From: a virus
Lineage: Duplodnaviria; Caudoviricetes
IMG/VR virus record: IMGVR_UViG_3300044961_000667
DNA: 64,000 nucleotides
Direction: 5' to 3' (one strand)
Below are positions 4,503 to 21,917 of the stretch, one piece after another (the stretch's first letter is position 1; every line of letters starts with the position of its first letter). The notes beneath the pieces are model-generated. The model saw nothing but the letters and a program-made list of their open reading frames with translations, ran no database searches and was not told the origin of the DNA. The translations under genes were made by a program, and so were the position numbers.

Positions 4503-4714
4503 GCGTACTTCCTCAGTCGCTCCATGGCCTGTTCCATGGTGATTGGCCGGTCGCCGGGGAATCCGTGCTTCACCCAGGACTTGGCCACCATGTCGTGGCA
4601 GCTGCCGCACGTGCCGAAACCGATGTCGCGCTCGGGATCGTGCGGCAAGTCCGTCCTGAAGCGTTGGCCACAGCAGTGGCACTCCACGGTACGGTAAAGA
4701 CCAGTCTCACTCAT
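4499..4714 (-). CDS. Small Cys-rich hypothetical protein
   Basis: CHCC...CGSC; coupled to neighbours. Confidence 0.55.
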   Translation of the reverse strand: MSETGLYRTVECHCCGQRFRTDLPHDPERDIGFGTCGSCHDMVAKSWVKHGFPGDRPITMEQAMERLRKYA

Positions 4715-5133
4715 TCGCCTCTCCTTGTCGGCCACACATACGGCAGGTTGTCTGGTACGCCGGGGAACAACGGCCCGTAGTGCGACGGCAGTTTCCGCAC
4801 GAGGTTGCTCTGGTGGCTCCGGTGGAACTCAGGATCGCCCAGCCACGACGGAGAAGTGCCGGTGTGACGCTGCATCGTCGAGACAAACTCACCGCGGATG
4901 GTGTCGTTGTACCCTCGGGCAATCCACTCGTCGGACATGGCGAGGCCGTACGCCGCCAAGTAGCGCAGGTGGCCTTCCCACATCTTGGCGGCCGGGTGGT
5001 TTCTCCAACCCTGCGTGCGTCCTTCCAACGCTCGAATCAGCTGGAGGGCCTCCACGCGTTGTTTGCCGAGGCGCCTGTAGTCGAGGGCCCTGGCTGATGC
5101 TCCGAAGTCCACCAGCGGCAGGAAGGTCTGCAC
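4711..5133 (-). CDS. Pyrimidine-dimer DNA glycosylase-like (MSMEG_6728 family)
   Basis: MQTFLP...LDYRRLGKQRVEALQ...WRNHPA.KMW...WLGDPEFHRSHQSNL. Confidence 0.85.
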   Translation of the reverse strand: MQTFLPLVDFGASARALDYRRLGKQRVEALQLIRALEGRTQGWRNHPAAKMWEGHLRYLAAYGLAMSDEWIARGYNDTIRGEFVSTMQRHTGTSPSWLGDPEFHRSHQSNLVRKLPSHYGPLFPGVPDNLPYVWPTRRGE

Positions 5134-5134
5134 A

Positions 5135-5641
5135 TCAGCGCAGCTCCGGGTGCTCTTCGCAGTACTCGTCGAAGTCCTGGCCTGTCTCCGGGTGGCACCA
5201 GTCGAACCAGGCGTCGTCCTTGGTCGGCTTCCCGTCGTCGTCCACGGCGCTGTCCGGCTCGTAGATCTGCAGGCCGCCGGCGTTCGAGTAGTCGGGCTTG
5301 ATGCGGTGCTGCAGCTGGAACATGTCGTAGTTCGCCAGCGTGTCGATCAGCAGCTTGGCCTCACGGAGCGTCTTGACTGGGACGTGGAACGCCTTGCCTG
5401 GAACCTGGGGGATCCACCAGACCCGGAGATCTCCCTTCTTCGGCTCCGTCTTCTTCGCCTTCTTCGCCATGACGTCTCCCTTCTCCAGAAACTGCAGATG
5501 ATCTCTGTCGTACGTGCGCAGCTCGGCACCGAAGCTGATCTTCACCCGCGTCTTGAGCACCCGCTGCACGGTGCCCAAGCCCCAATCGGGGTACCAACGA
5601 TCGCGGACCTTCAGCCCCAGCTTGAACTCGTCGAGCCTCAC
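5135..5641 (-). CDS. SH3-like N-terminus plus gp17-type superinfection-exclusion domain
   Basis: LRVWWIPQVPGKAF...LANYDMFQ...IKPDYSNAGGL; internal RBS and in-frame ATG at 5470. Confidence 0.65.
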   Translation of the reverse strand: MRLDEFKLGLKVRDRWYPDWGLGTVQRVLKTRVKISFGAELRTYDRDHLQFLEKGDVMAKKAKKTEPKKGDLRVWWIPQVPGKAFHVPVKTLREAKLLIDTLANYDMFQLQHRIKPDYSNAGGLQIYEPDSAVDDDGKPTKDDAWFDWCHPETGQDFDEYCEEHPELR

Positions 5642-6291: not shown

Positions 6292-6320
6292 AGCATCTCA
6301 CAGGACGGCGCGTTCGTCAA
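6292..6320 (-). promoter_or_regulatory. Sigma70-like promoter
   Basis: TTGACG-N17-GATGCT. Confidence 0.5.
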
Positions 6321-6441
6321 GAGGACAAAGCGCCATCAACTGTCGTTTTCTTCTCTCAGCAGACGCTGGCGACGATGCCGCGCCAACGACAAGGGCTCTC
6401 GCCACTGTGTGTGGGAGAGCCCCTGCGTCGCGTTGGTGCTG

Positions 6442-7434
6442 TCAGGCTACCTTGCGGATCGGGATCACCTTGGCCAGCTTGTCGCCGTCCAGCGGGCTGC
6501 TGTCGCCGTAGACGAGCTTGCCGTCTTCCAGGGTGATGTTCGCGTGGGCTCGGAACGTCTCCTCCGCGGTTTCGATCAGCAGCTTCTGCATCAGCATCGC
6601 ATCGCCGGCGGGGACGCCGTTCGGCTGGATGCACAGACGCTCGACGATCTTCCGCGTCTGGCGGTGGATCACCTTCACGTTGCCGTGCGTGCCCTTGTCG
6701 ATGCGGTACAGGCGGCCCGAAGGGGCGTCCACGAGGAAGTACCCGTGGCGCACGAGGCAGTCGGCCTGCTCGTCCGTCAGCACCTCCATCAGCAGCTTGA
6801 TCGCCGTCTCCTCGGCGAGCTTCCGCTTCTGGTCCTCCGCGGCGAGGCGGGCTCGACGCTCTTCCTCCTCGCGTCGCCACCGTTCCGCCTGTTCCGCCCG
6901 GAGCTTCTTCTGCTCCTCCGACTCCACGTGCTGGATGCGCCCGCGGTAGATCGGCTGCGGCTGGCTCTGCCAGACGCCCCAAACGGCGTCTTGTCGAGCA
7001 CCACCAGTGCCCACCACCCAGGAGTCCCAGATGTCGTACGTCGTCGCCGCCGACGTCATCGTGCCGGCGGACACCCAGGTGTTCCACACCGTCGTCGCGC
7101 TGTTGGTCGTCAACCCCGTCGTCGAGTTGTCGACCCACGTGCGCCACACCCCGGCCGTCCCGCCGGTGGGCATCGCCTGGAACGTTCCGTTGATCGATCG
7201 GACTCGCACGATCCCTGTCTCCTCTGAAGTCGGCGACGCCGTGTCGAGAACACCGTTCCCGCCGAAGAAGGCCGTCGACCGACGCGGAGCGGGCGGTGGA
7301 GTCGGCGGCGGTGGCGGCGCAACGTGCAATCGATTGCGCTTCAGCCCCTTGGCCATCTTGGCCTGGTTCAGCCTGTCGAAGACGCCTGGGCGGTAGCGCT
7401 CCTGCGCCCGCCTCAACGCAGCCGCGGAGGGCAT
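6442..7434 (-). CDS. Conserved hypothetical protein (Trp/Thr-rich middle, coiled coil, C-terminal LCIQP domain)
   Basis: 330-aa ORF directly behind the GG-ending protein. Confidence 0.7.
   Translation of the reverse strand: MPSAAALRRAQERYRPGVFDRLNQAKMAKGLKRNRLHVAPPPPPTPPPAPRRSTAFFGGNGVLDTASPTSEETGIVRVRSINGTFQAMPTGGTAGVWRTWVDNSTTGLTTNSATTVWNTWVSAGTMTSAATTYDIWDSWVVGTGGARQDAVWGVWQSQPQPIYRGRIQHVESEEQKKLRAEQAERWRREEEERRARLAAEDQKRKLAEETAIKLLMEVLTDEQADCLVRHGYFLVDAPSGRLYRIDKGTHGNVKVIHRQTRKIVERLCIQPNGVPAGDAMLMQKLLIETAEETFRAHANITLEDGKLVYGDSSPLDGDKLAKVIPIRKVA
7324..7338. repeat. GTGCAATCGATTGCG palindrome copy
   Basis: Exact 15-mer, inside a CDS. Confidence 0.8.
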
Positions 7435-7435
7435 G

Positions 7436-7702
7436 TCAGCCCCCGGTGACCGGCGGCGAGAGGATGATCTTCTCGGCGTTCGGGTCGAACTCCGTGATCA
7501 TCTCGCCCTTGTCGCCCTTCTTGTTCACGGAGTAGGCGAGGAAGCCCTTCTTGCGAAGGCGGTTGAACTGCTCCTTCGCGTTCTCCACCTCGTCGGGGTT
7601 CTTCGGGTCCCAGATGATCTTGGTGTCGCCCGTGCCGTCGAGCACGTGCAGCATGCCCTTGATCGGCTTCCCACCAAACGTCTCCGTCGTCAGCTCGCCC
7701 AT
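7436..7702 (-). CDS. 88-aa protein ending IILSPPVTGG
   Basis: CAGGAG RBS, ATG 7702; C-terminus like MoaD/ThiS. Confidence 0.75.
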   Translation of the reverse strand: MGELTTETFGGKPIKGMLHVLDGTGDTKIIWDPKNPDEVENAKEQFNRLRKKGFLAYSVNKKGDKGEMITEFDPNAEKIILSPPVTGG

Positions 7703-7828
7703 GTCGTCTCCTGTTGCGTTGTGGTGCTTCGTCCTCTTGACAAACAACCATGCTGACCCTCCTTCGTCAAGAGGGTCAAGCTGATTTGCTTCACTCACTA
7801 CCGCTGGCGGCGATGCCCCTGCTGCCTG

Positions 7829-15249: not shown

Positions 15250-15279
15250 AAACTAGCAGCAGTCCTCTCCGTTCGTCAA
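15250..15279 (-). promoter_or_regulatory. Sigma70-like promoter
   Basis: TTGACG-N18-TAGTTT. Confidence 0.55.
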
Positions 15280-15284
15280 GAGGA

Positions 15285-15599
15285 CTACGCCCGGCGGACG
15301 TCGTCCACCGTGAAAGGCCACTTCCCCTCTCCCTTGTGCACCACGGTCAGGATGGTGCCGACCTTGATGGGCACGCCGACCGGGATGTCGATCTCGGTCA
15401 CCATGCCGTTGCTCCAGTACATCTCGAAGCCTTCCTCGTCGCAGTCCAGCACGCCGGTGTGCAGCTTGCCGTCCCAGCTCCCCTCAAACAGCCAGGGTTG
15501 GATGCCGCCCTCGTCGATGACGTTCTGGGCGTCAGCCGGGTAGTAGACCGTGAGATCGTCGCCGTCCGGCGCCCGCATGTGTACCCGCAACATGGCCAC
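15285..15599 (-). CDS. Hypothetical protein
   Basis: ORF with RBS. Confidence 0.55.
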   Translation of the reverse strand: MAMLRVHMRAPDGDDLTVYYPADAQNVIDEGGIQPWLFEGSWDGKLHTGVLDCDEEGFEMYWSNGMVTEIDIPVGVPIKVGTILTVVHKGEGKWPFTVDDVRRA

Positions 15600-21859: not shown

Positions 21860-21887
21860 ATCATGCCTGCCTGCCCTGTTTTGTCAA
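21860..21887 (-). promoter_or_regulatory. Sigma70-like promoter
   Basis: TTGACA-N16-CATGAT. Confidence 0.45.
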
Positions 21888-21917
21888 GAGGACACAGGGC
21901 AGGCTCGGTCGATTCGA

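Follow-up and report, generated by a model that had tools for sequence, protein, structure and literature searches.

A phage-restricted two-gene module that pairs a small Gly-Gly-tailed protein with an invariant-cysteine partner and lacks an E1 of its own

Introduction

Ubiquitin-like tagging in bacteria has been recognised only recently and so far, as anti-phage defence, always together with an activating enzyme (E1). According to the accessible parts of the reports on BilABCD, Bub and the Cap2/Cap3 proteins of the cyclic-oligonucleotide-based anti-phage signalling system (CBASS), these systems include a small protein with an essential terminal glycine (10.1101/2023.09.04.556158; 10.1101/2023.09.26.559546). 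Urm1 conjugation, as the accessible part of a further report describes it, proceeds without a conjugating enzyme (E2) or a ligase (E3) (PMC9574740). The core of the ubiquitin-conjugating (UBC) superfamily starts with an N-terminal helix, which is followed by four strands in a meander and then by helices (PMC3173227). Here, we describe a pair of genes in a 64,000-nucleotide stretch of viral DNA (Duplodnaviria, Caudoviricetes; IMG/VR record IMGVR_UViG_3300044961_000667; hereafter the window), in which the gene of an 88-amino-acid protein ending in Gly-Gly is followed by that of a 330-amino-acid partner with an invariant cysteine. Our analysis firmly supports that the two form a conserved, mobile and phage-restricted unit without an E1 of its own.

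How does this module compare with the described systems? With Bil, Bub and type II CBASS, within what the same sources cover, it shares the pairing of a small glycine-ended protein with an invariant-cysteine protein in a phage-bacterium setting. Those systems, however, always comprise an E1 and usually a JAB protein, neither of which the phage module has; they are encoded by bacteria, whereas the module is encoded by phages; and the phage cysteine protein is not recognisably of UBC fold. The small protein resembles MoaD and ThiS (PF02597) in size (about 75–90 amino acids) and in the predicted order of strands and helix. It shares its last six residues, PPVTGG, with E. coli MoaD, whose ending we read as FFPPVTGG in NC_000913, in agreement with the original prediction for this locus, and the gene of the partner that receives the tail, here a putative role, begins 1 nt after the stop codon in E. 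coli moaD-moaE as it does here. In contrast to MoaD and ThiS, the phage protein has as its partner an unrelated coiled-coil protein that carries Cys and Asp, the module contains no MoeB/ThiF, MoaE or ThiG, which also holds for 12 of 13 near-complete genomes, and the pair of small protein and partner occurs in phages only. As to E2 enzymes, the predicted partner domain has the same order of elements as the UBC/RWD core, and a [H/Q]-P-x-x-x-P turn adjoins its cysteine.

Results

The original prediction, made from the letters of the window, was of an 88-amino-acid protein with the MoaD/ubiquitin-like ending IILSPPVTGG, next to a cysteine-containing partner. The minus-strand open reading frame (ORF) does encode this protein, with a C-terminus reading ...AEKIILSPPVTGG before TGA (Table 1). 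A longer frame would start at a GTG at 7798; we chose the ATG at 7702 because relatives of the small protein are mostly 74–100 amino acids long. The adjoining gene, 1 nt away, likewise carries the RLCIQP expected in its C-terminal domain, as part of a motif ERLCIQP at residues 265–271 in which the cysteine is residue 268. Close homologues number 64 for the small protein and 62 for the partner, and a profile search with the small protein through 1.84 billion representative proteins returned 2,546 clusters (50% identity) at E ≤ 1e-3 and 1,078 at E ≤ 1e-10. Neither protein has a match in Pfam, PHROG, NCBIfam, PADLOC or the PDB sequences, the extra N-terminal domains on longer members of the small-protein family have none in Pfam, and an ESM Atlas search with the module proteins matched unnamed viral clusters only. 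We found no description of this protein family in the literature.

The pairing of the two genes was assessed in 42 loci, namely 41 IMG/VR viral contigs with the small gene and the window, by clustering all of their ORFs. All 42 loci contain the small gene; clustering places the partner in 40 of them, and tblastn adds one more. No other gene family occurs in more than seven loci, and those that come closest are shadow ORFs antisense to the two genes. The partner nearly always begins within a few nucleotides of the small-gene stop, at a spacing of about −7 to +9 nt in most loci, and lies upstream in one; two or three partner paralogues stand beside a single small gene in two loci and in Virus Rctr197k. 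The GC content of the loci spans 33–70%. Among 185,579 species genomes the module was found in one contig, from a Planctomycetaceae metagenome-assembled genome (MAG), and it is therefore essentially phage-restricted. Against GenBank phages, blastn gave no match and tblastn a single one, Virus Rctr197k, in which both genes are annotated as hypothetical.

Some members of the family differ in arrangement. Virus Rctr197k (KX853510.1, 2321-5064) encodes a 142-amino-acid, tandem-duplicated small protein ending in IPG together with two partner paralogues, and its module adjoins an annotated CRISPR repeat region and transposase-like genes. In P0259 and P0246, from an AT-rich lineage, small protein and a short partner domain lie in one frame (...IPPMSGG-ALSGG...LCIN...D...); their internal Gly-Gly could mark a cleaved precursor, or a free carboxylate may not always be needed. 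We rejected the possibility that a programmed +1 frameshift links the two frames, as re-pairing is not possible at GGC-TGA-C and the gene spacing differs from locus to locus. In BFVD, the partner matched the two Rctr197k copies and A0A2L0UZL2 of Agrobacterium phage Atu_ph07 (MF403008), a 397-amino-acid uncharacterised protein of a cultured jumbo phage that resembles the partner domain (Foldseek E 0.016, probability 1.00, 127 columns). This lead was dropped, since neither family turned up when the Atu_ph07 genome was searched with profiles.

The small-protein family ends in Gly-Gly far beyond chance. Among 214 family sequences, 192 end in GG and 199 in G, and about 10 (about 5%) carry 1–5 additional residues past GG; in the profile search, the alignment reaches the last residue of the protein in nearly all of the matches listed. 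When 141 diverse representatives are aligned, Gly25 and the last Gly are the only two invariant columns, so that the conservation of the Gly-Gly, named for checking in the original prediction, is upheld. The tail as a whole follows the consensus I-I-[LM]-[AVS]-P-[PQA]-[MLVI]-x-G-G. All four synonymous Gly codons are used at both positions, GGA not being favoured (11 of 35), and GG is retained both at locus L023, although the next gene there lies 88 nt away, and inside the in-frame fusion P0259. Together, this codon variety, L023 and P0259 argue that Gly-Gly is selected at the protein level, beyond any use of its codons as a ribosome-binding site. As far as its sequences indicate, the family thus has what is a criterion for ThiS/MoaD proteins, a C-terminal Gly-Gly with a presumably free carboxylate.

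The conservation of the partner cysteine was examined in a 108-sequence alignment, made of the homologues and of partners read from related loci. Cys268 is a cysteine in 108 of 108 sequences, which bears out its expected conservation; among the 37 most diverse partners, Cys268, Asp278 and Ala298 are invariant, and Pro275 and Asn299 nearly so. Most partners have a histidine two residues after the cysteine (C-x-H), whereas C-x-Q/N/Y is found in the window's clade and in a few others, which carry a histidine in an upstream x-H-G-N loop instead; partners with both histidines, or with neither, are rare. This complementarity suggests that a histidine near Cys268 is needed, but it may reflect just one or a few evolutionary events in these sequences. 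In the AlphaFold2 model, the conserved domain is confident (predicted local distance difference test, pLDDT, 87–97) and comprises a helix (221–230), four strands (232–268), the fourth of which ends with Cys268, and a helix at 276–297. The long helix preceding it (173–218, pLDDT above 90) found coiled-coil matches only in fold searches. Residues 51–147 are modelled with low confidence, and residues 90–160 differ in sequence and length between phages and have pLDDT below 50.

Is the small protein a beta-grasp protein of the MoaD type? The AlphaFold2 model (pLDDT 73.5, weak in the first strand and the tail) has no beta-grasp match. Mean-field coevolution analysis (206 sequences; effective number 183) gave A56-L81 as the top coupling, and its best ladders pair strand 53–59 with 66–70 and with 79–84; the last strand therefore pairs with the one two places before it, which is how the C-terminal half of a beta-grasp is ordered and differs from a simple meander. 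No signal was obtained for the N-terminal strands, so the check on a beta-grasp fold came out in favour for the order of the C-terminal half only. On balance, we lean very slightly toward the small protein being a beta-grasp. The MoaD/ubiquitin-like character first proposed for the locus holds in that Gly-Gly and Cys are conserved and an E1 is absent; the profiles and the AlphaFold model, on the other hand, show no kinship with MoaD or ubiquitin. Fold searches also gave scattered weak hits to the beta-sheet half of papain-like proteases (Z up to 5.1), a likeness that we rejected because neither a His nor a Cys is invariant in the small protein. For want of the defining residues or folds, we likewise rejected a double-glycine leader/C39 arrangement, an L,D-transpeptidase of the YkuD type and a split protease of the papain type.

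In keeping with the earlier claim that the window holds no E1/ThiF gene, a tblastn search of the window with two phage ThiF-like queries, which is a weak test, gave nothing below E 0.9. A ThiF-family E1 occurs in 2 of 40 module-bearing records and, when only the 13 with a completeness of 90% or more are counted, in 1; 12 of these 13 near-complete genomes (the 12 measuring 41–148 kb) lack both ThiF and Prok-JAB. The exception is a 436-kb phage (G001, IMGVR_UViG_3300032782_000001) with a JAB and ThiF pair at 335515-337330, which lies roughly 190 kb away from the module itself (locus L023, with three partner paralogues); this phage may hold a second, E1-containing ubiquitin-like system. Among the clustered ORFs of the 42 loci, no MoeB/ThiF, MoaE, ThiG, PP-loop or rhodanese gene is common to the module loci.

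The surroundings of the module were scanned in 35 non-redundant loci with 136 flanking ORFs. The neighbours that could be named are DNA polymerase A, UvsX/RecA, SbcC, Erf, Rad52, RNase H, a clamp loader, primase, DNA methyltransferases, QueD, Ku and ParB-like proteins, and none of the 136 flanking ORFs encodes a capsid or tail protein. Neighbours from replication, recombination and DNA modification therefore argue for an early or middle intracellular role, and against a role in the virion or as a tail-fibre chaperone. Within the window, a minus-strand gene at 5135-5641 encodes a 168-amino-acid protein with a DUF3553/Tudor-like N-terminus and a gp17-type superinfection-exclusion domain (PF17420, E 5e-26), and the next gene after it (4711-5133, minus strand) a DenV-like pyrimidine-dimer DNA glycosylase (PF03013, E 3e-23).

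Both genes of the module are bracketed by 24-nt inverted-repeat arms that are 88% complementary (Table 1). A motif with the same TTCGTCAAGAGGAC core is present in five copies in the window, the two arms and those at 7763-7781, 15274-15290 and 21882-21898; the 17-nt pattern has four matches where 0.4 are expected by chance, and the fifth copy came from the repeat search. The right arm pairs as a hairpin with the copy at 7763-7781, and a terminator-like hairpin lies at 7753-7779, just upstream of the small gene. The motif could be a phage promoter or operator, a terminator element, or a trace of the mobility of the module.

Table 1. Coordinates of the module and its flanking repeats in the window
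Feature	Position	Strand	Remarks
Inverted repeat, left arm, 24 nt, TTCGTCAAGAGGAC core	6312..6335	.	Flanks the module
Partner gene, 330 amino acids	6442..7434	-	Directly downstream of the small gene
Conserved alpha/beta domain, residues 220-303	6526..6777	-	Helix, four strands, two helices
Invariant Asp278 codon	6601..6603	-	Asp in 108/108 sequences
Invariant Cys268 codon	6631..6633	-	Cys in 108/108 sequences
His250 codon (GTHGN)	6685..6687	-	Replaces the Cys+2 His in the window's clade
Long charged helix, probable coiled coil, residues 170-219	6778..6927	-	AlphaFold2
Ser/Thr-rich region with four WxxW motifs (W97, W117, W136, W152), residues 90-160	6955..7167	-	Alignment
N-terminal helices, RFKPGIFDRLKQS-type motif, residues 1-33	7336..7434	-	Window's subfamily only; pLDDT 82-90
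1-nt spacer, small-gene stop to partner ATG (TGA C ATG)	7435..7435	-	Translational coupling
Small-protein gene, 88 amino acids	7436..7702	-	Stop codon 7436-7438
Tail codons S-P-P-V-T-G-G	7439..7459	-	Terminal Gly-Gly = GGG GGC, 7439-7444
Shine-Dalgarno AGGAG	7708..7712	-	5 nt upstream of the ATG at 7702; read from the sequence
Inverted repeat, right arm	7722..7745	.	Just upstream of the small gene

Discussion

How might the two proteins of this module act together? We tentatively favour, as quite possible if somewhat short of probable, a two-protein complex in which the ubiquitin- or MoaD-like Gly-Gly tail of the small protein docks into a Cys/His/Asp site of the partner; the complex, the docking and any covalent step are all inferred. 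The module would be expressed alongside the replication, recombination and DNA-modification genes that surround it. The small protein would consist of a compact alpha/beta core of about 70 residues and a flexible Pro-Pro-hydrophobic-x-Gly-Gly tail with a free carboxylate, and the partner of a variable region with Trp motifs and rich in Ser/Thr, a coiled coil, and the conserved domain of about 85 residues. In the predicted site, the invariant cysteine at the end of a strand would lie beside a histidine and the invariant aspartate that starts the next helix. Docking would resemble that of the MoaD tail in MoaE or MoeB, or of the ubiquitin tail in an E2 or a deubiquitinase, and the variable region of the partner may choose a third party. 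A thioester of the cysteine with the terminal glycine could then form; such an E2-like route would need activation by a ThiF/MoeB-type enzyme of the host, because the phages carry none.

A number of observations weigh against tail docking at a Cys/His/Asp site. The module contains no ATP-using domain, and covalent chemistry would need a host enzyme. On the side of the small protein, PF02597 (ThiS) and the ubiquitin families of Pfam matched 0 of 56 and 0 of 141 members (197 in all) at E ≤ 1. A profile comparison by hhalign with enterobacterial MoaD aligns the last 22 columns only, that is, the last strand pair and the tail (P 0.023, probability 2%); all sequences recovered by the database search with E. 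coli MoaD were enterobacterial and at least 79% identical, and they are therefore a weak template for such a comparison. Foldseek gave no significant match for the small-protein model (E > 0.5; best PB1 domains at E about 1), and a VIA fold search no ubiquitin-like protein, its best match being part of AvrPphB at Z 5.1. Not every tail conforms, as three loci end in AG and Virus Rctr197k in PG, some tandem-duplicated small proteins have no GG, and the GG is internal in the fused forms. On the side of the partner, the structural matches of the conserved domain reach Z 3.7 or lower, in a wide fold search that was swamped by coiled-coil matches of the long helix, and the sole E2-like match is the FANCL ELF domain (Z 3.0, 73 residues, rmsd, the root-mean-square deviation, 3.6). 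Profiles of UQ_con, RWD and Prok-E2 from Pfam matched 0 of 37 diverse partners at E ≤ 1, and no E2 was found among PDB sequences at E ≤ 10 with the partner profile. The geometry also differs from that of an E2: the partner cysteine lies two residues before His-Pro (C-x-H-P), whereas the E2 cysteine lies in the flap after HPN; the HPxxxP-like turn follows strand 4 in the partner and lies between strands 3 and 4 in E2; and the HPN asparagine is not conserved in partners, with the histidine replaced by glutamine in the window's clade.

Going further than tail docking, the pair could be a minimal protein-tagging system that many kinds of phage have for themselves, a ubiquitin-like protein with free Gly-Gly and an E2- or ligase-like cysteine protein that selects its target through the variable Trp-motif region, working on a hijacked host MoeB/ThiF or free of any E1, and acting in DNA replication or host takeover. 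We regard this as doubtful.

Alternatively, the module might divert the sulfur-carrier pathway of the host, which we consider rather unlikely. Host MoeB or ThiF would adenylate and thiocarboxylate the small protein, and the partner cysteine would accept or relay the sulfur, for instance for nucleic-acid modification, or the thiocarboxylate would serve Urm1-style conjugation. The MoaD-identical last six residues and the alignable last ~22 columns (P 0.023) speak for this, as do the 1-nt gene spacing shared with moaD-moaE, the invariant partner cysteine, the DNA-modification neighbours (QueD, methyltransferases) and the conjugation without E2 or E3 that the accessible part of the Urm1 report describes (PMC9574740). 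Such a diversion is harder to reconcile with the absence of a ThiS match in Pfam from all 197 members, with the lack of any PP-loop, rhodanese, MoaE or ThiG-like gene that accompanies the module, and with a partner without a known sulfurtransferase fold.

Could the partner instead be a Gly-Gly-specific cysteine hydrolase, akin to deubiquitinases, with the small protein as its processed pro-domain, regulator or substrate mimic? The constellation of Cys, His and Asp, with a histidine that swaps between two sites, would suit such an enzyme; the fused forms would be self-cleaving precursors, and P0259 and P0246, with their internal GG, and the roughly 5% of small proteins with 1–5 residues past GG look precursor-like. 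We nevertheless judge a hydrolase unlikely, since 90% of small proteins already end at GG and would need no processing, the Cys-x-His spacing is unlike that of known cysteine peptidase clans, and neither fold nor sequence searches gave a peptidase match.

It is also improbable that the small protein is a decoy which competes for the E1 or E2 of Bil, Bub or type II CBASS while the partner traps or redirects the reaction. The restriction of the module to phages (one MAG contig among 185,579 species genomes), its mobility among unrelated phages, its early or accessory gene setting and a partner region as variable as in an arms race are what one might expect of a decoy. However, Bil, Bub and CBASS are sporadic whereas the module is very widespread (33–70% GC), nothing ties it to hosts bearing such systems, and the invariant Cys and Asp of the partner would be left unexplained.

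It is very unlikely that Gly-Gly is a by-product of translational coupling, its GGN GGN codons serving as the ribosome-binding site of the partner in an ordinary, non-enzymatic complex: the GG codons do lie 4–10 nt upstream of the partner start in most loci, several read GGAGG, and the AG-ending locus L021 has a separate GGAGGG site, but the use of all four codons at both glycines (GGA in 11 of 35), the GG kept at L023 with its next gene 88 nt off and inside the fusion, and the conserved P-P-hydrophobic-x residues that precede it largely exclude such an artefact.

In conclusion, phages harbour a Gly-Gly family of more than 2,500 clusters that is restricted to them, is locked to an invariant-cysteine partner and brings no E1 along. 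Should the two proteins prove chemically active, phages would tag or carry something by a route that has not been described, either borrowing the sulfur-carrier activators of their hosts or using a new mechanism. If the two proteins merely form a complex, they would still represent two large unnamed protein families with a clear and testable active-site signature. In either case, the terminal glycine, Cys268 and Asp278 offer direct handles for experiments.

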